DNA from: an uncultured virus (IMG/VR IMGVR_UViG_3300014160_000002)
Lineage: Duplodnaviria > Heunggongvirae > Uroviricota > Caudoviricetes
Strand: one strand, 5' to 3'
DNA length: 20,000 nucleotides
IMG/VR virus record: IMGVR_UViG_3300014160_000002
Location: 55,410-75,409 of that record
Part shown: positions 360 through 18,274 of the stretch, piece by piece
Layout: each line of letters begins with the position of its first letter
Numbering within the stretch: position 1 is the first letter of the stretch
Notes under the pieces: model-generated
What the model saw: only the letters and a program-made list of their open reading frames with translations
The model's database searches: none
What the model was told of the DNA's origin: nothing
Made by a program: the position numbers and the translations under genes

Positions 360-2891
360 ATGAGTGTAAAGACCAAGACAGCCTACATTTCGCCGACGTT
401 TGCTACGCTGGAGATTTCAGCGATGCACACAGGTTTGTCTCCCACCGCTTCCATTGTCCTCGATTTAGGAATCCCCAAGTTCACCACGTTCTCCATCAAG
501 TTCCCCATCCCCGAGGAGACCCAAGCTTTTCAACAGGTCGCCAGTGAGGCACTGGGGGTTATGTTGGATGAGATGACCGCCTTCATGATATCGGTGGGCT
601 ACAAGAAAGAAGTCATCGCCAAGATTTATGCCCTCACGCTAGCCTGCTACAAGGATTTGGTCGCCAATGACCACCCGGAGAATCGGGAGAAGGACCCCAG
701 TATTGGCTCCGTGCGGGGAGAGTTTCAAATCCCTGCGGACTTCATCAATGAGACCCAGCGGTATGTGGTGACAGCGGGTAAGAAGGTAGACCGCAGCCCC
801 CGGCAGCGCCGGGTGGAGATTGTCCCCAAGCGTCCGGTCAACCCCTCCAAGAACGATGTTCTCAAGGCTATCCGGCGCTATCGCTTCCAAAGCATTAAGA
901 GTCAGCCGTTCCCCTTATACCTCGTGGTCTATGACAACATGGGACAACCCAAGGGTACGCTGACACTGGGGCCGGGCTTCCACAATGAGCTTTTGAAGAT
1001 GCAGTACAAAAAGAAAGGGGCTGACCAAGACCCCAACCAAGCCTACAAAGACGCTGTAAGGGCCGGTGGAGGCGTTTGGAAGGGCATCGGAGAGAACGGT
1101 CTTGGCGGGTGGATGGTTTATTTCGATAACGCTGCTACCCGGTCAACCCTCACTTTGGATACCACGGAAGTGACGCCCGAGGCGGTCGCAGCCAAAATTA
1201 AGTTGAATCAGGATGCCACGGATGAACGAAGGAAGAAAATGGCCGGTCAGTGGGGACCTCGTTCCTATGATGGTGATTCTATTCACGATATATTAGACAG
1301 GCATCGGCCCGGATATGACGACGTGGGAGACCGGGAGCATTTGGGTTTTGATGAACCCATCCCCGAGGAGCAGTTGCCGTCCCTGTACAAAGAGATTGAG
1401 GCACTGGACCTCAGCCAGCCGGACATGATGCAGAACTACGTGGGCGTGGTAGTGTTTCTCATAGAGCATGGCACGCTGGTCCCCGATACTCTTCGCCACA
1501 AAGCGGCAGAGCTTGCCACGGCACTTCTCACCGGCACCAAAGGCGGCGGGCCGGGCGGAGCCGACGAGCGGGGGTGGAAGCTTTGGAAAGACCCAGAGGA
1601 GCGCAAGCAGCGGCTTCGGGAGGAGATTGCCCTCTTGAGCAAGGGTTCTCTCGCCAAGGAAGCACGTTTCCTCCGCATTGATGAGATGCAGGCTTGGGGG
1701 ACGGGCAAACAGGATGAGTATTATGCTCAACACCCGGAGCTTGGCAGTCCGGGAAAGAAGCTGAATCTCATGGTCACCGAGCCGGACGGAACCTCCACTC
1801 CGTTAGCTAAAGCGGTGAAGGCGGACTACGGCCCTGACGCCCGGCGCTGTCCTGAGTGTGGCTCCTCCAATGTTCATACGGTCCCGCACGTGCGAGGCGA
1901 TGTGACGCATTGTGACGATTGCCAGCACGAGGCCCACACCTCGTGGTTTAAGGGAGCGGCGGTTCACCCGGAGTATGGGGATAACACCGCTGCCGTAGAA
2001 GCCAACCGGCCTTTAGTCGCCAAGACAAACCTCGAACTTGCGGCGAAGGAGGGTATTGAAACTAAGGGGGAAAGCCTTGTTCTTTACCATGGCACCCGGA
2101 GCGCAATCAAGATACGGAATTCCGGGGTATTTCCCATCGGCACGTACTTTGCCACGACGGAAAAGGAAGCATGGCAGTGGGCTTTGTCGGCTTCCCCGCA
2201 GAAGAACCGGGCGGTAGTGCTGAAAGTCTTGGTGCCAGCGGGCACGGTGTTCCCCAGTGGAGGTGGTGTGAGGTATTTCAGCACTAACGAGCAGATTCCC
2301 TACCGTCCCATAGGGGAGCCTAAGACCGCCGACTATTACGACGAGCAGGGTTTCTGGGCCGGTGAGGGCGGCGGAGCCTCGGGGATTCTCCCGGTCTGCA
2401 CTACAACGGGTCGTATTTGCTTTGCATGGCGGTCTCCCGAGGTCCAACAGGGTTCCTGCTGGGGAACTATCGGCGGAGCCATCCAGAGGGGTATGCAGCC
2501 CGGTGAGAGCGCCAAAGAGGAACTCTGGGAGGAGACGGGGTACAGCGGAGGCATGACCCTCCATCCCGCCTACGTGTTCCAAAGTGGGACATTTCGTTAC
2601 TTTAACTTCATCGGTGAGACGGCACAGGAATTCGACTTCCAGCCTCAAAGTGATGCCGTATGGGAGACCGAAGGATTAGAGTGGTTTACACTCCCGCAGG
2701 TCCGGGAGTACATGGCAAAAAGTCCCCATGAGTTTCACAGTGGGGTAATAGCCCTGTTCAAGAATTCGGGGAAGCTTATCGAGCAGATTTGTGCGAAGGC
2801 AGCCCCCAAGAAGGGAAAAGGCGATGGAAAACCAAGCAAGGTTAGAGAGTCCAGCACTGGTAAAGCTCCGGGAGCAGGCGGCACAGCTTAA
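360..2891 (+). CDS. 843-aa multidomain (polyvalent) protein: DUF4259-like, Zn-ribbon, ADP-ribosyltransferase-like and C-terminal Nudix hydrolase domains
   Basis: Nudix box GGAIQRGMQPGESAKEELWEETG; LYHGT...GTYFATTEKEAWQWA (ART-like); CPECGS...HCDDC; GQWGPRSYDGDSIHDIL...WKDPEERKQRL (DUF4259-like). Confidence 0.7.
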   Translation: MSVKTKTAYISPTFATLEISAMHTGLSPTASIVLDLGIPKFTTFSIKFPIPEETQAFQQVASEALGVMLDEMTAFMISVGYKKEVIAKIYALTLACYKDLVANDHPENREKDPSIGSVRGEFQIPADFINETQRYVVTAGKKVDRSPRQRRVEIVPKRPVNPSKNDVLKAIRRYRFQSIKSQPFPLYLVVYDNMGQPKGTLTLGPGFHNELLKMQYKKKGADQDPNQAYKDAVRAGGGVWKGIGENGLGGWMVYFDNAATRSTLTLDTTEVTPEAVAAKIKLNQDATDERRKKMAGQWGPRSYDGDSIHDILDRHRPGYDDVGDREHLGFDEPIPEEQLPSLYKEIEALDLSQPDMMQNYVGVVVFLIEHGTLVPDTLRHKAAELATALLTGTKGGGPGGADERGWKLWKDPEERKQRLREEIALLSKGSLAKEARFLRIDEMQAWGTGKQDEYYAQHPELGSPGKKLNLMVTEPDGTSTPLAKAVKADYGPDARRCPECGSSNVHTVPHVRGDVTHCDDCQHEAHTSWFKGAAVHPEYGDNTAAVEANRPLVAKTNLELAAKEGIETKGESLVLYHGTRSAIKIRNSGVFPIGTYFATTEKEAWQWALSASPQKNRAVVLKVLVPAGTVFPSGGGVRYFSTNEQIPYRPIGEPKTADYYDEQGFWAGEGGGASGILPVCTTTGRICFAWRSPEVQQGSCWGTIGGAIQRGMQPGESAKEELWEETGYSGGMTLHPAYVFQSGTFRYFNFIGETAQEFDFQPQSDAVWETEGLEWFTLPQVREYMAKSPHEFHSGVIALFKNSGKLIEQICAKAAPKKGKGDGKPSKVRESSTGKAPGAGGTA

Positions 2892-3561
2892 TGCCGCTGC
2901 ACGGGGAAAGTGGGGGGAGAAAGTTCCTCCTCCGATAAAGAAGGGGAACATCACCGTCTACCGCCCGGACACCGGAGAGGTCCTTTACTCCGAGCGCAAT
3001 ATCATCACGTCCATATCCAGTTGGCTCTTTGCCCAGTTCATGGCGTGTGCCTCCCCCTTGAACCTCTCCCCACCACAGACTCAACCGGTCAGCATCGCTG
3101 CTACAGAACCGGCGTGGGGCGTCTGGGGGTTGGCTCTGGGCGCTGGCAGCCCCACGTGGGCACCAACTACTCAACCCGTGGAAACGGCCACTCAGGTAGA
3201 ACTCATTCAACCGCTCGCCCGTGTGCAGTTGAGCCGGGTGAACTTCGTCACTCAGGACAGCAGCGGTAACTGGAACCCGCAGGCGGTGTTGACCACCAAC
3301 GTGGAGTTTCAGACCACGGTGAACAGCACGACCAACAACATCAATCAAGGCATCCGGGAAATGGGCCTCATTGGCGGCGGTATCGCCAACATGGGCAGCT
3401 ATACCATGTTGACTGCTCCATACTTCAACGGCAACCCGTCTTCCTATGCCACGGTGCAGGCCAGTCAGCAAACGGTCATTCTTTTGAATTACAAGACTTT
3501 GCCGCCACTGCTTCTGCCGCCCGGCATCGACATCATTTTCAGTTGGATATTCCAATTCTAG
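2824..3561 (+). CDS. Putative baseplate/tail-associated structural protein
   Basis: ERNIIT...GLALGAGSPTW...IREMGLIGG...LNYKTLP...SWIFQF pattern resembles phage baseplate/tail-fibre N-terminal domains; ATG2824 follows a purine-rich stretch. Confidence 0.55.
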   Translation: MENQARLESPALVKLREQAAQLNAAARGKWGEKVPPPIKKGNITVYRPDTGEVLYSERNIITSISSWLFAQFMACASPLNLSPPQTQPVSIAATEPAWGVWGLALGAGSPTWAPTTQPVETATQVELIQPLARVQLSRVNFVTQDSSGNWNPQAVLTTNVEFQTTVNSTTNNINQGIREMGLIGGGIANMGSYTMLTAPYFNGNPSSYATVQASQQTVILLNYKTLPPLLLPPGIDIIFSWIFQF

Positions 3562-3568
3562 GAGATTC

Positions 3569-4066
3569 ATGGGGAACATCTTAGCGGTGCAGTTGGGAGA
3601 ATGGCAGGAGTTGTCGGATGGCGTAGTTGACACCGGCTATCGTGTCGTTCTCTCTACGCAACGTGTCCAGATGAATGTTCAGACCACCACTTTTTGGGGA
3701 CAACAGATTCTCATGGCGACTGGCTCCCCATGGGGGGTGGGAACCGTGGACATTGGCTCCCTTTCGGTCATCGCCCAGTTTAACCTGTTCCTCAATCAGT
3801 TCGTAGGCAAGCGCCGGGGATGGGGACAGTTCGTCAATGTTCCTTACAACCCGTCCTATTACCTCGCCCGCACCTACGTCATCGCCGTCCCCGAGGCCGA
3901 GCCGCCCGAGTCTGCCGGTCCTATGATTCTGCTTGCCAGCGGCTATGACCCCCTCAAGGGTTGGTGGTTGACCTTCAAGGGGAACTTCCGCCTGCACATC
4001 CCCATCTTCCAAGATTTCTGTCCGGTGGAGAACCAGACCCCAGATTATAGCATAAAAGTTAAATAA
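3569..4066 (+). CDS. Hypothetical protein, possibly virion-associated
   Basis: 165-aa ORF with AGGAG RBS, directly after the baseplate-like gene. Confidence 0.65.
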   Translation: MGNILAVQLGEWQELSDGVVDTGYRVVLSTQRVQMNVQTTTFWGQQILMATGSPWGVGTVDIGSLSVIAQFNLFLNQFVGKRRGWGQFVNVPYNPSYYLARTYVIAVPEAEPPESAGPMILLASGYDPLKGWWLTFKGNFRLHIPIFQDFCPVENQTPDYSIKVK

Positions 4067-4083: not shown

Positions 4084-4230
4084 ATGGTGATAAATTGGGG
4101 GAAGACTCTTTCCGGGGCTATGTTCGTCATGTCGATTGCGGCGAGCATCGCCTATTTTTGTGCCAAGGATTACCGCAAGGGCACTTACTGGTTAGGGTCC
4201 TCCATTCTTATCGCCTCTTTGACATTTTAG
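4084..4230 (+). CDS. 48-aa two-helix membrane protein (not in the ORF track)
   Basis: MVINWGKTLSGAMFVMSIAASIAYFCAKDYRKGTYWLGSSILIASLTF; two hydrophobic segments; fills the gap and its stop abuts the next RBS. Confidence 0.65.
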   Translation: MVINWGKTLSGAMFVMSIAASIAYFCAKDYRKGTYWLGSSILIASLTF

Positions 4231-4237
4231 GGGGAAT

Positions 4238-4561
4238 ATGGCACTCGAATTTTCACCCAATTGGACCGCTACCGGCAAGCACCTGAAATTCTCTTATCTC
4301 GGACCCAGTCCCAGCGGGAAGACGGGAATTTTCGGCGTCTTCTCTTCTCATAACGAGAACTATCTCGGCACCGTGGAGTACTACGCCTCATGGCGGCAGT
4401 ACAACTTTAATCCCGAGACGGGCACCACTTATGCCGCCAGTTGTCTCCGGGACCTTGCTGATTTCTGCGAGCACTGGACCAAGGAGCAAAAGGAGATGCA
4501 TGAAGGATTCCCCGCTATTTCGCTTCGAGCGGACCGTGGTGATGACGGCAACGGTGCTTAG
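4238..4561 (+). CDS. Hypothetical phage protein
   Basis: GGGGG RBS; 107 aa with WRQYNFNP...CLRDLADFC segment. Confidence 0.65.
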   Translation: MALEFSPNWTATGKHLKFSYLGPSPSGKTGIFGVFSSHNENYLGTVEYYASWRQYNFNPETGTTYAASCLRDLADFCEHWTKEQKEMHEGFPAISLRADRGDDGNGA

Positions 4562-4703: not shown

Positions 4704-5305
4704 GAATTTTCCTGATTTGCCCCGTGCGGTACGCAAGCCCCGAGCAGACGGAGATGATAGCAAAGTACGTTGCCTTCCAAGAGAAGGTGGAGGGCAACAC
4801 CGTACACTGGCCTGCCCGTGACACACTGCAAACCCAAGATACCCTCAAGATTTGTGAGGACAACCGCTTCGCCATGGAGCATTCCGATGAAGTCCATATT
4901 TGGTATGATTACGAGAGTCAAGGAAGCGTGTTTGACATCGGCATGGCGTTCGTATACAAAAAGCCGGTCCTCATCGTGAACCGGGGGGACGTTAAGGCTA
5001 CGGATAGCAAGTCCGTGAACAACCTTCTCCTGTCCCTTGACCGGCAGGCACGGGATTTGAAAAAGCCTGTGGAGACTCCGCCCGAGAGCCGGATACCGCC
5101 TTACCACGTGCGTTATCCCAACGGTCATGGGATGCGGTCAGAAAGTGACATGTACGGGTACAAGGACCCGACGCCCGACGTTACCTTCCCGGATATTCCC
5201 GTCGCTCCCTTTGAGTCGGAGATTGAGGATGAACTGCGGGGGATGCCTGCCGATGAAATGCCCGGACAGGATGCGGCGGCTTTTCCTGTTGGAAGTGGAG
5301 GATAA
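4700..5305 (+). CDS. Nucleoside 2-deoxyribosyltransferase-like protein with acidic C-terminal tail
   Basis: MRIFLICPVR...HWPARD...SDEVHIWYD...SQGSVFDIGMAF...KPV; AAGGAG RBS. Confidence 0.65.
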   Translation: MRIFLICPVRYASPEQTEMIAKYVAFQEKVEGNTVHWPARDTLQTQDTLKICEDNRFAMEHSDEVHIWYDYESQGSVFDIGMAFVYKKPVLIVNRGDVKATDSKSVNNLLLSLDRQARDLKKPVETPPESRIPPYHVRYPNGHGMRSESDMYGYKDPTPDVTFPDIPVAPFESEIEDELRGMPADEMPGQDAAAFPVGSGG

Positions 5306-5306
5306 C

Positions 5307-5756
5307 ATGAAAGTCTGGACACTCCGGGAGCCATGGGCAAGTATGGTGGTTCTCGGAGAGAAGAAGTGGGAAACCCGCAGCCGACCCAACCGCAAGATTG
5401 TGGGGCAAACCGTGGGCATCCATGCCTCGGCGCATCACTTCAAGGATTTTCTTGACTCCGATGGGTGTTTCATAGAGCCATTCTTGACTCGCTTTGCCAT
5501 GCACGACGTGGACCCGGATATGCTCCGCCTCGGCTGCATCATCGGCACCGTGGATGTGGAAACTTGCCAGCCGGTGGAGGAGGTCGCCCCGGCGCTGGAT
5601 TACGTGCAGTACAGCCTCGGGGACTGGTCTACGGGTAGGTATTGCTTCCGGCTGGCGCATCCTCGAATGATTGAGCCGGTGGAAGCCAAGGGAGCGCTGT
5701 GTTTGTGGGAGTGGGATGCTAAGGACCTTCACTACAATGGATACCCAAACCCTTAG
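5307..5756 (+). CDS. ASCH domain protein
   Basis: TLREPWASMVVLGEKKWETRS...IHAS...GCIIGTVDV...KGALCLWEW; GGAGG RBS. Confidence 0.85.
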   Translation: MKVWTLREPWASMVVLGEKKWETRSRPNRKIVGQTVGIHASAHHFKDFLDSDGCFIEPFLTRFAMHDVDPDMLRLGCIIGTVDVETCQPVEEVAPALDYVQYSLGDWSTGRYCFRLAHPRMIEPVEAKGALCLWEWDAKDLHYNGYPNP

Positions 5757-6495: not shown

Positions 6496-6517
6496 TCTCC
6501 GCTAAATCGTCCATGCG

Positions 6518-6526
6518 TGGTATACT
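6518..6526 (+). promoter_or_regulatory. Extended -10 promoter (TGGTATACT)
   Basis: TGn-TATACT in an intergenic gap, upstream of RBS and ATG6543. Confidence 0.6.
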
Positions 6527-6542
6527 GTAAGTGGGGGGTACT

Positions 6543-6779
6543 ATGGACGACCTGACGAAAAAGTTGAAGGAAGAGTCTGAGAAACTTGCGGAAGAATACT
6601 TCCGTCACCCTAGCCCCATGGATTATATGGTGGTTAACAGCATTTTGGTGCGGGGATTTATCATGGGATGCAACCATGCCAAGGGAATTTTTTACCCGAA
6701 ACCACCCGCTTCCGTGCCGGTTGAGGGGACCTTGGAAAAGGCTTTGTCGGCTTTTTGCGATGCTTGGGAAAAGAAATAA
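6543..6779 (+). CDS. Hypothetical protein (78 aa)
   Basis: Promoter and G-rich RBS upstream. Confidence 0.6.
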   Translation: MDDLTKKLKEESEKLAEEYFRHPSPMDYMVVNSILVRGFIMGCNHAKGIFYPKPPASVPVEGTLEKALSAFCDAWEKK

Positions 6780-6800
6780 CTGCAAAAAACCGACTACCGG

Positions 6801-6809
6801 TGGTATTAT
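6801..6809 (+). promoter_or_regulatory. Extended -10 promoter (TGGTATTAT) of the leader/tRNA operon
   Basis: TGn-TATTAT; a weak -35-like CTGCAA lies 18 nt upstream; a stable hairpin starts at the predicted +1. Confidence 0.6.
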
Positions 6810-6814
6810 ATAGA

Positions 6815-6984
6815 AGGAGGGAGCTACGGCTCTACTCCTAACCGGGAACCTGCTTGTCCCCGAAAAATGGCTGGTCTTAAAAGGGCCTCCCGTTAGGTTA
6901 GACCCCGAAGCGGACTCGGACAAGGTCCCGGCGAATTACAGCAGATATACCCATCCGGGGTGGACGCTAGGCGACCGCCCCGGA
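6815..6984 (+). ncRNA. Structured 5' leader or ncRNA with three helical domains
   Basis: Hairpin 6815-6839 with C(UACG)G loop; domain 6842-6931 closed by CCGGGA/TCCCGG and TTGTCC/GGACAA; hairpin 6954-6984 (TCCGGGGTGG/CCGCCCCGGA). Confidence 0.5.
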
Positions 6985-7002
6985 CATTCAAAGAGAAGCG
7001 CA

Positions 7003-7077
7003 ATGTTGACTATCACCATGCCGCACACACAAACGCAAACTACGATTAGTTCAGGCGGCGGAGCCTGCTTGGCATAA
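7003..7077 (+). CDS. Attenuator leader peptide MLTITMPHTQTQTTISSGGGACLA (Thr/Ile/Gln-rich)
   Basis: 24 codons; AAGAGAAG upstream; 10 of codons 3-15 are Thr, Ile or Gln; the 3' end overlaps the antiterminator arm. Confidence 0.75.
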   Translation: MLTITMPHTQTQTTISSGGGACLA

Positions 7078-7107
7078 CAAAGACCAAGCCGAGACTCAGC
7101 AGCCGCC
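7052..7107 (+). promoter_or_regulatory. Protector and antiterminator segments of the attenuator
   Basis: Protector CAGGC(7052-56)/GCCTG(7063-67). Alternative pairing: GGCGG(7057-61)+CTGCT(7065-69) with AGCAGCCGCC(7098-7107), or GGCGGC(7054-59) with GCCGCC(7102-07); either sequesters the terminator 5' arm. Confidence 0.65.
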
Positions 7108-7129
7108 CAAAAGGCGGCTTTCGTGTTTT
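7101..7129 (+). terminator. Intrinsic terminator (attenuator)
   Basis: AGCCGCC-CAAAA-GGCGGCT stem followed by TTCGTGTTTT (imperfect U tract). Confidence 0.7.
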
Positions 7130-7143
7130 ATGGGGGTTTTTTG

Positions 7144-7506
7144 ATGGCGAAGTTTGAACAGCATTGCACGGACTGTCAAATCATCCTCGGCAAGAAGTAT
7201 GAGGATGTCAACCGGTGGGTCGATGGGTTGTTTTGGAAGTTCGGTCCCCGGCACCGCAGGATGCGCCACAACCTGCATGGTGTGAGAGAGGCGCAGAAGT
7301 TGTTCGGCCCGGATGGAGCGAAAGCGGCTATTGTTCACATCGTCCGGGATATGGGAAAGGTTCCGCATGAGCGGGATTACGATAGGGTCCCCGAGGGAGT
7401 GGAAATCTTCCCCGGCTTCTGTGACCCACCGCTTGGATTTGTGCAGCACTTTGCGTTGTTCCGTGCCGCCGCCGAAGCGGAGATAGAGCGAATCTTAGGC
7501 GGGTAG
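7144..7506 (+). CDS. His-rich small protein, DUF6915-like (possible metal-dependent hydrolase)
   Basis: EQHC...YEDVNRWVD...RHRRMRHNLHGVREAQKLFG...HIVRD; GGGGG RBS; stop codon lies inside tRNA-Ile. Confidence 0.6.
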   Translation: MAKFEQHCTDCQIILGKKYEDVNRWVDGLFWKFGPRHRRMRHNLHGVREAQKLFGPDGAKAAIVHIVRDMGKVPHERDYDRVPEGVEIFPGFCDPPLGFVQHFALFRAAAEAEIERILGG

Positions 7507-7572
7507 CTCAGCGATACGAGCAATCGGCTGATAACCGATAGGTCGAGGGTTTGACTCCCTCTCCGCCTACCA
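7497..7572 (+). tRNA. trnI: tRNA-Ile(GAU)
   Basis: Acceptor AGGCGGG/TCCGCCT; anticodon arm ATCGG-CTGATAA-CCGAT; T loop TTTGACT; encoded CCA. Confidence 0.9.
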
Positions 7573-7627
7573 TTTTGATACGGTGTACCGCATAGATAGG
7601 GTTTATGCGGTCAGCCGTATAAGTCAT

Positions 7628-7702
7628 GGCACCGTCGTCCAGCGGCTAGGACCTCCGCCCGATTAGCGGAAGACCCCGGTTCGAGTCCGAGCGGGGCTAC
7701 CA
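7628..7702 (+). tRNA. Atypical tRNA-like gene with GAU at the anticodon position (pseudo-tRNA or decoy)
   Basis: Cloverleaf with CCA; loop CCGATTA (C33, U37); one acceptor and one T-stem mismatch; Glu/Asp-like D arm GTCCAGCGGCTAGGAC. Confidence 0.65.
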
Positions 7703-7704
7703 TT

Positions 7705-7845
7705 TGAATGCCTGTTGACCGGGAGTTTTCCGGCTCAATGCAGCAGGTCCCGAGTGGGTTCATGATTCGTGCAAAGGCAGGTCATGGATTCCGGGAACCG
7801 GGGAGACCCGAGAAACCTGTTACCTTGTTCCTTGCCGGGCATTCA
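7705..7845 (+). ncRNA. Unassigned structured RNA within the tRNA array
   Basis: 10-bp closing stem TGAATGCCTG/CGGGCATTCA with several internal helices. Confidence 0.5.
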
Positions 7846-7905
7846 TCAGTTAGCTCATCCACCAAGTGTGGAAAGAGTTGGGACCGTCCTCGTGATGGTC
7901 CTTAT

Positions 7906-7981
7906 GCTACTGTAGCTCAATTGGCGGAGCGCCGGTCTCGTACACCGGAGGTTGCAGGTTCGACGCCTGTCAGTAGCTCCA
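7906..7981 (+). tRNA. trnT: tRNA-Thr(CGU)
   Basis: GCTACTG/CAGTAGC; CCGGT-CTCGTAC-ACCGG; TTCGA T loop; CCA. Confidence 0.93.
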
Positions 7982-8041
7982 AGTTTTAGGTATCGTATAA
8001 TGGACCTTATCTCGGATAACGTCCATTATATTGAACCTTAA

Positions 8042-8117
8042 GCTGCCGTGGCGCAGTTGGTAGCGCACCTGCTTGGTAAGCAGGGGGTCGGGAGTTCGAG
8101 CCTCCCCGGTAGCTCCA
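8042..8117 (+). tRNA. trnT: tRNA-Thr(GGU)
   Basis: GCTGCCG/CGGTAGC; CCTGC-TTGGTAA-GCAGG; CCA. Confidence 0.93.
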
Positions 8118-8123
8118 TTTTAA

Positions 8124-8198
8124 GCCGCAGTAGGCCAGTGGTAGACGGCATCCTTGGTAAGGATGAGGACGTGGGTTCGATTCCCACTTGCGGCTCCA
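8124..8198 (+). tRNA. trnT: tRNA-Thr(GGU), second divergent copy with weak D stem
   Basis: GCCGCAG/TTGCGGC; CATCC-TTGGTAA-GGATG; GTGGG-TTCGATT-CCCAC; CCA. Confidence 0.85.
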
Positions 8199-8202
8199 GT
8201 TT

Positions 8203-8284
8203 GCTACCGTGGCACAGCGGCGACTGCACCTGCCTTGTAAGCAGGCATATCACAACGGGGGTTCGAGTCCCTTCGGTAGCTCCA
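8203..8284 (+). tRNA. trnT: tRNA-Thr(UGU) with enlarged variable region
   Basis: GCTACCG/CGGTAGC; CCTGC-CTTGTAA-GCAGG; 11-nt variable region CATATCACAAC; CCA. Confidence 0.88.
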
Positions 8285-8326
8285 GTTTCCAAACGCACAG
8301 TTTTTGATGCGTTTGATGAATATCAT

Positions 8327-8401
8327 TCCAGAGTCGTCTAACGGTCGGACATGCGGCTTTGAACCGCAGAATGAGAGGTTCGATTCCTCCCTCTGGAACC
8401 A
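8327..8401 (+). tRNA. trnQ: tRNA-Gln(UUG)
   Basis: TCCAGAG/CTCTGGA (U1-A72); TGCGG-CTTTGAA-CCGCA; CCA. Confidence 0.9.
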
Positions 8402-8407
8402 AGTTAT

Positions 8408-8481
8408 TCCGGGGTCGTCTAATGTTAGGATAGGTGGTTTTGACCCATCAGATAGGGGTTAGAGTCCTCTCCCCGGAGCCA
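8408..8481 (+). tRNA. trnQ: tRNA-Gln(UUG), non-canonical D and T loops
   Basis: TCCGGGG/CCCCGGA, G73, CCA; GGTGG-TTTTGAC-CCATC; T loop TTAGAGT. Confidence 0.82.
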
Positions 8482-8523
8482 AGAAATCTCCCATCGTGAG
8501 TATCTAATGGTGTGGAGGTTCAC

Positions 8524-8922
8524 ATGAACAAGCTCTCAAAGTTTATTGCAGCGTTAGTACTGGTACTTGCGGTCAGTGCCCCGGCTTCGGCTTGGTGGGG
8601 TCACCCGCACTACGTTTTCTACTATGGACCCGTGGCTTACCCGGCGCAGTGCTTCGGCATCAATTGCGTTCCCCCGTGGGGGAACAACTACATCGTGGTC
8701 GCCGCCGCTGGCAGGGTGGAGATAAAGACCACCAAGGTAGGTAACCGGGTTATCGTGGATGGGGGATTCGCCGGAATGACCGGTACACTGCGGAAGTTCT
8801 GGCTCAAGGCCGGGTCGCACACCATTCAGATTGAAGACGACTACGGCAAGATTTTGTATCGAGAACGAATCGAGGTATTGGCCGGTAAGAAACTTAGGCT
8901 ATATCCCGATGAAAAGCACTAA
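8524..8922 (+). CDS. Secreted protein with PEGA-like domain
   Basis: Signal peptide MNKLSKFIAALVLVLAVSAPASA; RVIVDGGFAG...WLKAGSHTIQIE; GGAGG RBS. Confidence 0.7.
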   Translation: MNKLSKFIAALVLVLAVSAPASAWWGHPHYVFYYGPVAYPAQCFGINCVPPWGNNYIVVAAAGRVEIKTTKVGNRVIVDGGFAGMTGTLRKFWLKAGSHTIQIEDDYGKILYRERIEVLAGKKLRLYPDEKH

Positions 8923-12457: not shown

Positions 12458-12778
12458 GTGATTACCAAGGAACAGCTTCGCAAATTGGCTGAGAAGTGGC
12501 TCGAAGAAGAGCAGGAAGCGGCTCGGAAGACAGTGGAATTAAACGAGCGGCTCCTGCGGGGTGAGACCCTGACAACCACCTACGTTGCCTGTAATGGGCC
12601 TTCACCGCTCAGCAAATGGGCGGCTGCACAGGAACTCTTGGCGGCATTGGATGCACCGGAAATTATCCCGTTGCCGCCGCCGAGTACAAGCGATAAGTGC
12701 CCAAGGTGTGGTTCACCTTTACGGTACTGCATAGAAGGTGAGTACTGTTCCAGTCCTGATTGTGGTTATGCTCTTTGA
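12458..12778 (+). CDS. Hypothetical protein with C-terminal Zn ribbon
   Basis: GGAG RBS, GTG start; CPRCGS...YCSSPDCGY. Confidence 0.65.
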   Translation: MITKEQLRKLAEKWLEEEQEAARKTVELNERLLRGETLTTTYVACNGPSPLSKWAAAQELLAALDAPEIIPLPPPSTSDKCPRCGSPLRYCIEGEYCSSPDCGYAL

Positions 12779-12782
12779 ATTA

Positions 12783-12860
12783 GCCGGGTATGCTGACCCT
12801 TCCTTCTAACATGCAGAGGCCCGAAAGGGCTTCACCAAAGCAGGTTTGGCGGTTTCCGGC
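12783..12860 (+). ncRNA. Repeated structured RNA motif, copy C
   Basis: GCCGG/CCGGC stem; GGGTATG 12786-92; CTTCCTTCTAA 12799-809; inner GAGGCCC-GAAA-GGGCTTC hairpin. Confidence 0.65.
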
Positions 12861-12865
12861 GAAGT

Positions 12866-12930
12866 GAAGAGGGCGGAGCATCGGGGGCGCAGCCGGTCAA
12901 CGACTGAAACCCCCGACTCCGACCCTCTTC
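12866..12930 (+). other. Long imperfect hairpin
   Basis: GAAGAGGG/CCCTCTTC, CGGAG/CTCCG, TCGGGGG/CCCCCGA, CAG/CTG. Confidence 0.7.
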
Positions 12931-13855: not shown

Positions 13856-14749
13856 GTGGCTAAGAGACAGCCCAAAGAGAAACAGCCCGAGACTTACGCC
13901 GAGTGGCTGGAGTGGGAAAAGCGCAACTGGCACTCTCAGGGAGAGGATTGGGTTGTGCCGCCGAACCCCACCTATCTCTACAAGGTGGGAGAGGAAGTCA
14001 TTCTCGGTGGTCTAAAGGACGCCCGGATAGAAGAAATTTTTGACAACGGAATGAGCTACCATATCTCCTACCATGACGTTCAACACGTCTATGGGAATGA
14101 GGTTGACTGCGGTCGGAAACCCCGTATCGTCTGGTGGAACCAGATTGCTCCCAAGTGCCTGCAAGAGAACACCAACTTTGCCCGCCCCCGCATCCACGCC
14201 CAATACGTCACCACCGGCATGGATGGCATGATATTGACCGGCTATCGCCGGGGATACATCGACAACCCGGAGTACCAGCGGGGATACGTGTGGAACCTTG
14301 AAGATAAGCAGCGGCTCATCGACTCCATCTTCAATCGGACTGACATCGGCAAGTTCGTCTTTGTGGAGTATCCCTATCCCGAATACCGGCTGGAAATCGT
14401 GGACGGCAAGCAGCGTATCGCTGCCATCCGGGAATATATCGAGGGGCGCTTTCCCTACAAGGGCAAGACCTTCTACCAGCTTTCCAACGCTGACGTTCAT
14501 GCGTTCGAGGATACCAATGTGCAGTACGTGATGCTGGATTCCACCAAGGTCAGCAAGGCGGATATCCTGTGGCTGTTCCTCAGCGTCAACGCTGCCGGGG
14601 TGCCACAGACCGAGGAGCACATCGCTAAGGCGAAGGCGCTCTACGAGGAAACTCTGGCGGAGGAGGCCCGGCAGAAGGCCGACACCGCCCTCCGTAAGCA
14701 ATACGAGGCCGCAATAAAGGAGCAAAGAAATGGCAATCAGGGTGCTTAA
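13856..14749 (+). CDS. DUF262 (ParB/GmrSD-like) domain protein
   Basis: NPEYQRGYVW...LIDSIF...EIVDGKQRIAAI...FLSVNAAG; AAGGA before GTG13856. Confidence 0.85.
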   Translation: MAKRQPKEKQPETYAEWLEWEKRNWHSQGEDWVVPPNPTYLYKVGEEVILGGLKDARIEEIFDNGMSYHISYHDVQHVYGNEVDCGRKPRIVWWNQIAPKCLQENTNFARPRIHAQYVTTGMDGMILTGYRRGYIDNPEYQRGYVWNLEDKQRLIDSIFNRTDIGKFVFVEYPYPEYRLEIVDGKQRIAAIREYIEGRFPYKGKTFYQLSNADVHAFEDTNVQYVMLDSTKVSKADILWLFLSVNAAGVPQTEEHIAKAKALYEETLAEEARQKADTALRKQYEAAIKEQRNGNQGA

Positions 14750-17192: not shown

Positions 17193-17645
17193 ATGTCCAA
17201 CTACGACGCTTATTGCGATGAGTATCGGAAACAGAGGGATATTCCAAGAAGATTTAATATGAGGTTCCCCTCGTCCTTGGAAACGTTACAATTGAGTAAA
17301 GAACGTTGCTGGTATTGTGGCGTAGTCTTAATCTGTGACCCAAATAGTTTGAGTCATAACTATACTAGAGACCATCAAAACCCCGAAGGAGGAAACCAAC
17401 TATCTAATTTGGTAGCCTGTTGTAAAACCTGTAACTGTAGAAAAGGGCATAAAACTGTAGAAGCGTATCGTCAATGGTTGTGGGATAAAACCCCGGTAGG
17501 ACAAGCGTGGTTTGCTCTTCGGGATGCTTTATCTACAAATCAATTATCTGAAAGTGTAAGTAGTAAAATCGTAGAGGAAATGACAAGATTAGAAACCGGT
17601 AACCCCAAGGGTATATTTTTTGGTGAACGTAATATGTCTAGCTAA
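17193..17645 (+). CDS. HNH endonuclease
   Basis: CWYCG...TRDHQNPEGG...NLVACCKTCNCRKG; AGGAGG RBS; AT-rich. Confidence 0.85.
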   Translation: MSNYDAYCDEYRKQRDIPRRFNMRFPSSLETLQLSKERCWYCGVVLICDPNSLSHNYTRDHQNPEGGNQLSNLVACCKTCNCRKGHKTVEAYRQWLWDKTPVGQAWFALRDALSTNQLSESVSSKIVEEMTRLETGNPKGIFFGERNMSS

Positions 17646-18274
17646 AGATGCTTTCCACAGGTGCAGGACTTCCCACGGTTGATGTTCCATCGAAGACAAT
17701 TTCCCTTCCGTGGAATACCTCTTTGTGCCTCAGCTATCTTTCGTTTTGTCTCCTCTGAACGGGGCTTGCCAAAATTGGGATTCTTATCCCCCAGTTTAGA
17801 TAAACGGATATTTTCCAGCTTACCACGGGGTCCCCGTAACGCCGCCTTGTGAGCATAAGATTTGGGCACACCTCTTGTAGCCAAGGACATCAACCGCCTG
17901 CTGGCCTTGGTATGTTTCCTTCCTTTCCAAGCTTTTGCTAATTTGGCACGGGTCTCAGGAGATGGGGATAACCCAAGACAATTGCCCGCTACAGGACAGA
18001 TGTTGTACCCGTTTTGGGTGGTATTAAAACGGTCTATGAATTCCTGTTCGTATTTTATAAGTGAATCTCGGTCGCATTCAAGCAGGACCTCAAACTTGAA
18101 TGCTTTCGGTCCTCGTTTTTTCCAACTACTTTGAAGGTGAGGGGAATGGTGTTCCCCCCTATCAAGCCTCCAGCGGTGCAGTCTCCACCGATGGTAGATG
18201 TTGACGCTTGACCCGATGTACTTTTTTCCATTTTCAGTATTAGTGATTGAATAGACGCCGCACATTTTACTCAT
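17642..18274 (-). CDS. GIY-YIG homing endonuclease with NUMOD3 repeats
   Basis: GVYSITN...KYIGSS...RW..H...LQSSW...EQEFID...GYNI; SPETRAKL, GRKHT, NPNFGKPRSEETKRKI. Confidence 0.9.
   Translation of the reverse strand: MSKMCGVYSITNTENGKKYIGSSVNIYHRWRLHRWRLDRGEHHSPHLQSSWKKRGPKAFKFEVLLECDRDSLIKYEQEFIDRFNTTQNGYNICPVAGNCLGLSPSPETRAKLAKAWKGRKHTKASRRLMSLATRGVPKSYAHKAALRGPRGKLENIRLSKLGDKNPNFGKPRSEETKRKIAEAQRGIPRKGNCLRWNINRGKSCTCGKHL

Follow-up and report, generated by a model that had tools for sequence, protein, structure and literature searches.

The stretch analyzed here (20,000 nucleotides, referred to below as the window) matches IMG/VR record G001, a giant wetland phage genome of 316,945 bp (~317 kb) that is 99% complete according to CheckV. 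It carries an array of Ile, Thr and Gln tRNA genes preceded by a short open reading frame (ORF) and a predicted intrinsic terminator. Comparing this unit with the rest of the genome and with related loci, we consider it very probable that it is a leader-peptide (ribosome-mediated) transcription attenuator gating a phage tRNA operon. Since the output of such an attenuator (tRNAs) would relieve its input (slow decoding), it would operate as a negative-feedback sensor of tRNA supply. Both the attenuator architecture and the match between leader codons and tRNA anticodons are strongly supported by the sequences compared. The initial annotation, made from the letters of the window, had already likened the unit to thrL/trpL-type attenuators. 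This likeness was reinforced by the presence of the same design, with other codon sets, before all four tRNA clusters of the phage, and by the conservation of the Thr/Ile/Gln leader in relatives.

The leader ORF and the terminator lie in a 364-nt stretch without long ORF upstream of the array, extending from an ORF end at 6779 to the ATG at 7144 (Table 1). This ORF is short, close to the 5' end of the transcript and upstream of the genes that would be regulated, as in known leader-peptide attenuators. Ten of the 23 sense codons of this leader specify Thr, Ile or Gln, compared with a share of 0.151 in the background (binomial P = 1.1e-3), which here and below is the codon usage of 82 ORFs (150 aa or longer) from the 75-kb record. 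The five distinct anticodons of the array all find a Watson-Crick cognate codon in the leader. We thus recovered several elements proposed in the initial annotation: the leader ORF with its listed codons, a terminator at 7101-7129, for which the scan located both the hairpin and the T-run, a single protein gene (DUF6915-like) between the terminator and the tRNAs, eight tRNA or tRNA-like genes with the anticodons assigned to them, all called by ARAGORN and the Rfam tRNA model, and a cognate leader codon for every anticodon of the array. All eight tRNAs exceeded the 29-bit gathering score of the Rfam model, the lowest being the atypical Ile-GAU copy (40.6 bits).

Table 1. Features of the Thr/Ile/Gln unit, in window coordinates.
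Feature	Position	Strand	Basis
Promoter-like extended -10 motif TGGTATTAT	6801..6809	+	Sequence reading; conserved in diverged relatives L007, L008 and L020
Structured 5' leader RNA	6827..7002	+	RNA contig starts, folding, relatives
Leader ORF, 24 codons + stop, MLTITMPHTQTQTTISSGGGACLA	7003..7077	+	ORF call; start, frame and stop conserved in relatives
Second, shorter regulatory run, codons 3-5 (ACT ATC ACC)	7009..7017	+	Sequence reading
Main regulatory run, codons 9-15 (ACA CAA ACG CAA ACT ACG ATT)	7027..7047	+	Sequence reading; Thr/Gln swap positions in relatives
Predicted antiterminator 5' arm, last leader codons	7054..7066	+	Consensus fold of 6 nascent-RNA sequences
Small hairpin, GCTTGG 7067-7072 with CCAAGC 7084-7089, stop TAA 7075-7077 in loop	7067..7089	+	Folds
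Predicted intrinsic terminator, stem-loop 7101-7119 + T-rich tail	7101..7129	+	Hairpin/T-run scan, folds; in all relatives of the unit
DUF6915-like protein gene, 120 aa	7144..7506	+	PF21866, E = 7.7e-6, 26.4 bits vs cut-off 27
tRNA-Ile (GAU)	7497..7572	+	ARAGORN, Rfam tRNA model
tRNA-Ile (GAU), atypical copy	7628..7702	+	ARAGORN; Rfam tRNA model match 7628-7699, 40.6 bits
tRNA-Thr (CGU)	7906..7981	+	ARAGORN, Rfam tRNA model
tRNA-Thr (GGU)	8042..8117	+	ARAGORN, Rfam tRNA model
tRNA-Thr (GGU)	8124..8198	+	ARAGORN, Rfam tRNA model
tRNA-Thr (UGU), 82 nt	8203..8284	+	ARAGORN, Rfam tRNA model
tRNA-Gln (UUG)	8327..8401	+	ARAGORN, Rfam tRNA model
tRNA-Gln (UUG)	8408..8481	+	ARAGORN, Rfam tRNA model

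The genome of G001 contains 62 tRNA-model matches arranged in four clusters, and each cluster is preceded by the same succession of a promoter-like motif, a structured RNA, a short ORF, a stop-in-loop hairpin and a terminator, with a terminator 5' arm complementary to the last codons of the ORF in every unit. The leader of unit 1, MKNLSSNSLSSLSYSSSLLSGLVLPDGWDG, has a Leu/Ser/Tyr codon set and precedes Tyr, six Leu and three Ser tRNAs. That of unit 2, MRNRKPNPMQWQPKRHFSRPSFGGLPFAP (Arg/Asn/Lys/Pro/Met/Gln(CAG)/Trp/His/Phe), stands before His, Arg, Asn, Lys, Phe, Met, Pro, Gln-CUG, Trp and further Arg tRNAs, and that of unit 3, MNMKTAITNPVDLIEAVAAVCEGGDTSPSGGLG (Val/Asp/Glu/Ala/Cys/Gly), before Val, Gly, Ala, Asp, Glu and Cys tRNAs. 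Unit 4 is the one of the window, with the Thr/Ile/Gln(CAA) set of MLTITMPHTQTQTTISSGGGACLA before Ile, Thr and Gln-UUG tRNAs. Gln is split by codon between two units, CAG occurring twice in the leader of the Gln-CUG cluster and CAA twice in the window leader (Gln-UUG). In units 1-3 the first tRNA begins 5-12 nt past the T-run, so the terminator of these units can hardly serve anything but tRNAs.

Codons readable by the tRNAs of the unit's own cluster numbered 18 of 29 in unit 1 (binomial P = 7.2e-7), 22 of 28 in unit 2 (P = 5.1e-7), 17 of 32 in unit 3 (P = 2.5e-2) and 10 of 23 in unit 4 (P = 1.1e-3, as above). Over the four units, own-cluster matches accounted for 67 of 112 codons, with off-diagonal counts of 0 to 6; among the 24 possible pairings of leaders with clusters, the true one scored 67 and the next best 50. 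When wobble was allowed, each of the 42 distinct anticodons, which together represent all 20 amino acids, was matched by a cognate codon in the leader of its own unit. With Watson-Crick pairs only, cognate codons were found for 8/9, 12/16, 10/12 and 5/5 anticodons in units 1 to 4, respectively. Random leaders drawn from the background covered 22.6 anticodons on average and 34 at most, and none of 20,000 reached 42.

This coverage bears on what the unit would be for. The same attenuator could act as an inducible counter-defense, as proposed in the initial annotation, by providing replacement tRNAs when an anticodon nuclease or toxin destroys Thr, Ile or Gln tRNAs. Replacement of defense-cleaved host tRNAs by phage tRNAs is known and, judging from its architecture, the circuit would react whenever decodable tRNA is lost, cleavage included. 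However, the sensors on all four clusters, spanning 20 amino acids and 42 anticodon species, argue against a narrow toxin target, no host and no tRNA-targeting defense are known for the phage, and nothing in the window ties the unit to a defense system, no such link being found among its gene annotations. Because of this coverage by the four units, we prefer a general homeostasis of tRNA supply to a counter-defense specific for Thr, Ile and Gln, which we regard as unlikely.

As a regulator of general tRNA supply, the attenuator would work in the following way. Transcription would start downstream of the conserved TGGTATTAT motif and the 24-codon leader would be translated while the RNA polymerase is still on the leader. 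With too little charged tRNA of the kinds encoded in the array, the decoding of Thr, Ile and Gln codons would be slow and the ribosome would wait at codons 9-15. The last leader codons (GGCGGCGGAG...) could then pair with the terminator 5' arm, forming a long antiterminator that encloses the stop-codon hairpin, and the polymerase would read into the DUF6915-like gene and the eight tRNA genes. With fast decoding, the ribosome would instead cross the antiterminator 5' arm up to the stop codon, the 7101-7119 hairpin would form and transcription would stop at the T-run. From the features observed, their conservation, the codon match and the pairings obtained in silico, we infer that the ORF is translated, that termination takes place in vivo and that the response runs in this direction.

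The terminator stem has 7 pairs, 6 of them G-C, and a loop of 5, followed by TTCGTGTTTT. In the consensus fold of six relatives, GGCGGC/GCCGCC and GAG/CUC form a long hairpin enclosing a GCUYGG/CCRAGC hairpin with the stop codon. The corresponding antiterminator pairs predicted in the window are GGCGGC (7054-7059) with 7102-7107, GAG (7061-7063) with 7095-7097 and CT (7065-7066) with 7091-7092. The terminator 5' arm is shared with this antiterminator and, in the nascent RNA of the window unit, is paired with a probability of 0.84 without ribosome. In each of the four units, folding of the nascent RNA cut before the terminator 3' arm paired the 5' arm with the leader ORF end; the mean pairing probability of the arm was 0.83 to 1.00, both in ribosome-free RNA and when a ribosome occupied the first or a middle regulatory codon. 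The pairing between the last leader codons and the terminator 5' arm suggested in the initial annotation is thus predicted both in the nascent RNA of the four units and in the six-relative consensus. In relatives, a U-A pair of the small hairpin is replaced by C-G, a compensatory change, and the stop codon likewise lies in a hairpin loop in the other three units of the phage. The protector hairpin CAGGC/GCCTG, which had also been proposed, fared less well: it was present in the full-length minimum-energy fold, but it has only 5 pairs, with a U-U mismatch in L005 and L007. A clearer candidate for this upstream protector pairing, of 7 bp, was found in unit 3. The Rfam scan of the whole window, with E values up to 1, returned the tRNAs and two sub-threshold chance rows elsewhere, and no leader, T-box or riboswitch family.

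Evidence on the transcript comes from contigs of RNA libraries. Contigs X3 and X4, from two studies, both begin at 6827 and carry before it an identical 23-letter non-genomic loose end, which we take to be the end of an Illumina adapter and which suggests that many fragments ended exactly at 6827. The X3 contig (1,511 nt) covers 6827-8314 with no differences and bridges the terminator into the Thr tRNAs, while X4 covers 6827-7482 and X18 covers 6832-7099. The contigs fit a transcript starting at ~6827 and able to read through the terminator. Their depth is given per contig and cannot rank the parts of the unit, so we took no evidence for attenuation from it. A motif of the same class as TGGTATTAT is found upstream of the other three tRNA clusters of the phage.

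The region before the leader ORF is structured (z = -3.36 for the fold of 6780-7143). A 9-bp hairpin (6955-6963 with 6975-6983) stands directly before the purine-rich ribosome-binding region and is kept with changed letters in L005-L008. A conserved motif at ~6876-6912, consisting of GGTCTTAAAAGG, a short variable stretch and TAGGTTAGACCCCGAA, is also present in the otherwise diverged L119; it is absent before the other three units of the phage and has no Rfam match. Separately, a 14-nt identity, ACCTGCTTGTCCCC, was observed between L085 (~4397) and positions 6849-6862 of the window.

Several observations weigh against the attenuator, the first of them concerning the switch itself. In units 2-4, among them that of the window, the terminator persisted in the full-length minimum-energy fold whatever the ribosome state. 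With this behavior, the switch would have to be kinetic, as in trp attenuation, where a kinetic competition between the translating ribosome and the polymerase is the accepted logic: the translating ribosome would unwind the 5' arm while the polymerase makes the terminator. The alternation between hairpins postulated in the initial annotation was thus recovered in part, folding with and without ribosome masks giving the antiterminator in the nascent RNA but no switch in the full-length equilibrium folds of units 2-4. When a ribosome with a footprint of 28 nt was placed at the stop codon, it did not mask the outer antiterminator stem, and the 5' arm remained paired with a probability of 0.79 to 0.97 in units 1, 2 and 4; a block of the antiterminator by full translation would have to come from steric effects and timing, which lie outside the folds. 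A ribosome with the last regulatory codon in its A site already overlaps the antiterminator arm, and the probability drops to 0.29 in the window unit, so that only stalls at earlier codons would fit the model cleanly. Covariation is weak in the closest group (1 of 17 pairs with changes on both sides) because the antiterminator arm is invariant.

Other difficulties concern the start of the transcript and the leader. A sigma-70 consensus scan of the + strand called no promoter at 6801, where the initial annotation had placed one, although the extended -10-like TGGTATTAT at 6801-6809 is conserved and has counterparts ahead of the other tRNA clusters. RNA contigs start at 6827, 18 nt after the hexamer rather than ~7 nt; this RNA end may therefore be a processed end or a start from a phage-specific promoter. 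The RNA contigs show neither 3' ends nor levels, and DNA may occur in RNA libraries. Lastly, the leader has a weak Shine-Dalgarno-like element (AGAGAAG) and contains each codon type no more than twice, in some cases once, without runs, and the excess of matching codons in unit 3 is modest when taken alone.

Codon-matched ORFs were also found in distant phages. In LR745208.1, a very distant uncultured phage of 485 kb, the 6 tRNA clusters examined gave four clear codon matches, a partial one (Ile only) and none for the last (Ser). The short ORFs concerned stand before Leu, Thr, Arg/Gly and Glu/Asp clusters (L095 ~14280-14518; L094 ~14590-14680; L093 ~12760-12887 and ~3730-3821), examples being MRFFTTTRTRTAGLTRKG before three Thr tRNAs and MNSYTTSERERESDSERT before Glu/Asp/Glu. 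Each of them lies downstream of a TTGACA...TATACT-like site, and a hairpin encloses the stop codon; the scan found no hairpin + T-run at these ORFs. In the cultured jumbo Xanthomonas phage XacN1 (AP018399.1), a 13-codon ORF, MNKPYYKRYYAKA (L096 ~1490-1563), is located directly before tRNA-Lys(CUU), tRNA-Lys(UUU) and tRNA-Tyr(GUA), and 8 of the 9 upstream regions examined run straight from protein genes, without leader ORF. Finding codon-matched ORFs in these two huge and very distant phages suggests that viral tRNA genes may be controlled by a general principle not described so far.

The LR745208.1 ORFs indicate that codon matching is possible without a canonical intrinsic terminator. They would agree, as would the full-length folds that always keep the terminator, with a mechanism in which the ORF is translated but the position of the ribosome controls RNA processing, stability or Rho access, the hairpin and T-run being a constitutive partial terminator. 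In G001, however, every unit combines an intrinsic terminator with complementarity between the 5' arm of this terminator and the end of the ORF, the hallmark of termination control. We thus hold control through processing or Rho to be very improbable in this phage and retain transcription attenuation.

Relatives of the DUF6915-like gene were found at 8 loci in viral contigs and 22 loci in metagenome contigs. As anticipated in the initial annotation for homologous loci, the leader and terminator are kept wherever the gene adjoins an Ile/Thr/Gln array and enough upstream DNA is present (10/10, with 9 distinct peptides). We also recovered them in L105 and L106, where the terminator and the DUF6915-like gene are separated by an additional, inserted ORF. 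Among the 22 metagenome loci, the unit is present in 11, two are cut off (L102 and L111), and the 9 without unit (L107, L110, L112-L118) have no Ile/Thr/Gln array behind the gene.

In the closer relatives, the regulatory stretch reads TQTQTTI, TQTQTQI, TQTTTQI or TQTTQTI, Thr and Gln trading positions. Replacements in the leader remain within Thr, Gln and Ile, and third-position changes are synonymous (ACA, ACG, ACT; ATT, ATC). The 16 bases GGCGGCGGAGCCTGCT (7054-7069) that contain the antiterminator arm are invariant in all group-A relatives, third codon positions included. Taken together, the Thr/Gln exchanges and this invariant stretch form the pattern expected if the first part of the leader were selected for the tRNAs that it calls and the second part for RNA pairing. 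An exact 16-mer scan of viral contigs returned 75 stretches, 11 of them in leader context (8 in known contigs and 3, in L020, L039 and L040, with one new leader); the other 64 were discarded as unrelated GC-rich coding DNA.

More distant leaders (L108, L109 and L119) are rich in Thr, Ile and Gln on a different scaffold, e.g., MTQSTQTRITTTTTTIIGGGGGILREGLDN, and the C-terminal scaffold of the L108 and L119 leaders resembles that of the Leu/Ser/Tyr unit. Since Thr/Ile/Gln codons are carried there on the scaffold of another unit, the units appear to be paralogs in which the regulatory codon block has been rewritten. In two other contigs, relatives of unit 3 have kept the Gly/Asp/Glu/Ala/Val/Cys leader and the complementarity between leader end and terminator flank, with a different terminator stem. 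It is hardly credible, in view of these data, that the ORF is not a sensor, i.e., that it encodes a small functional peptide or is untranslated, its Thr/Ile/Gln richness being incidental and the terminator ending an upstream non-coding RNA: the weak ribosome-binding site, the long structured 5' leader with its conserved motif and a single-unit statistic of only P = 1.1e-3 would suit such an explanation, but four leaders match four tRNA sets with a coverage that 0 of 20,000 random sets reached, Thr and Gln permute in position while the set is kept, unlike in the evolution of a sequence-specific peptide, and relatives have kept the frame, the start and the place of the stop codon in the loop.

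The protein gene of the operon has DUF6915 only, mostly viral, among its nearest atlas clusters. Its AlphaFold model is all-helical with low confidence (pLDDT 60.2), and a profile search of solved structures found no relative (best E = 1.1). The stop codon and last 10 bases of this ORF (7497-7506) overlap the 5' end of the first tRNA-Ile. In the metagenome contig L110, a DUF6915-like gene (68% identity over 80 residues) lies within another tRNA array (Ser, Ser, gene, Tyr, Asn, Met, Val, Ile, Arg); the family is thus repeatedly linked to phage tRNA genes. Further into the array of the window, the 203-nt spacer between the second Ile tRNA and Thr-CGU (7703-7905) folds well (z = -2.58). RNA contigs from two runs, with 5 differences and unrelated flanks, match the window at 7744-7800 only, so that transcripts of other organisms or relatives share a ~57-nt element with this spacer.

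Other elements were observed around the tRNA clusters. Upstream of unit 1, the 1560-1900 region of L084 contains a second promoter-like motif, ~230 nt of highly structured RNA and a terminator-like hairpin, as well as a strong Shine-Dalgarno sequence and a start codon followed by an immediate stop codon. In L085, the regions 4100-4520 and 5240-5585 exhibit, between called tRNAs, tRNA-like T-arm/acceptor ends and long hairpins that ARAGORN did not call. HNH-type zinc-finger ORFs are located between tRNA genes in L085 (~2672-3080) and L007 (~3417-3935). The latter ORF comes directly after a truncated-looking first Ile tRNA, at a locus where ARAGORN calls no Ile tRNA, and may be a homing endonuclease inserted in or beside the tRNA gene.

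The gene content around the unit is that of a large phage, with GIY-YIG and HNH homing endonucleases, a UvrD-type helicase and several PHROG families. At 17193-18274 of the window, an HNH endonuclease ORF (+) and a GIY-YIG/NUMOD3 homing endonuclease ORF (-) stand tail-to-tail directly before the UvrD-type helicase gene. A blastn search with 6500-8600 against cultured phages yielded tRNA-level matches only, no record covering 80% of the query. A 19-mer scan of bacterial and archaeal genomes gave at least 120 stretches; among the matches listed, one had a tRNA nearby (L152, on the opposite strand and ~930 nt off). These matches are due to chance and thus give no clue to the host.

Classical leader-peptide attenuators are those of E. 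coli and Salmonella (thrL, trpL, hisL, leuL, and pheL), among which thrL mixes Thr and Ile. As in the thrL/trpL type, the window unit has a short promoter-proximal ORF with the sensed codons and a terminator whose 5' arm has a predicted alternative upstream partner, and stalling would lead to readthrough. The classical leaders control biosynthetic enzymes, whereas tRNA genes and a DUF6915-like gene are found here; moreover, codons are sampled once or twice per anticodon species instead of forming long runs, and the antiterminator 5' arm lies inside the ORF before the stop codon, itself in the loop of the enclosed hairpin. In all described leader-peptide attenuators that we know of, the regulated genes are amino-acid biosynthesis or synthetase genes; the leader of the window is followed instead by a DUF6915-like ORF and eight tRNAs.

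Attenuators sensing several amino acids with one leader are known for ilvGMEDA (ilvL) and ilvBN, but these are three related amino acids made by the operon, whereas up to 16 anticodon species and 9 amino acids would be sensed in G001 (unit 2), with tRNAs as products. The pheM leader of pheST, which attenuates a tRNA synthetase operon, resembles the window unit in acting on a translation component but differs from it by its output, a synthetase, and by the single amino acid sensed. T-box riboswitches also sense the tRNA status of a specific codon/anticodon and control terminator readthrough; unlike the window unit, with its conserved ORF and no T-box match, they bind uncharged tRNA without a ribosome, through a Stem I specifier and the T-box sequence. 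A possible Phe-rich leader before the E. coli tRNA-Phe genes was discarded, the ~100 nt upstream of pheV in MG1655 containing no such ORF. The matching passages of PMC3082878 concern pheL only and describe no Phe-rich leader of tRNA-Phe genes. A full-text search, with subscription journals largely outside it, found no account of leader-peptide-controlled tRNA genes in phages or cells.

We are inclined, with more reserve than for the attenuator itself, to view the four paralogous sensors as a genome-wide, codon-by-codon meter of decoding capacity, sampling all 42 anticodon species, with each sensor gating exactly the tRNAs that it samples. If this is correct, the decay of host tRNAs, or an attack on them, would not leave the translation of the phage short of tRNA, and no tRNA would be overproduced. 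The sensors would be modular, and evolution could re-program them by codon rewriting when tRNA genes move between clusters. Classical attenuation would be extended from amino-acid supply to tRNA supply, with one short ORF sensing up to 16 tRNA species, and such units would be compact, re-programmable parts for synthetic biology, usable as codon-specific reporters of translation stress. On-demand expression via decoding-speed feedback would then be a direct answer to why tRNA-rich phages carry tRNAs and how these are timed and dosed.

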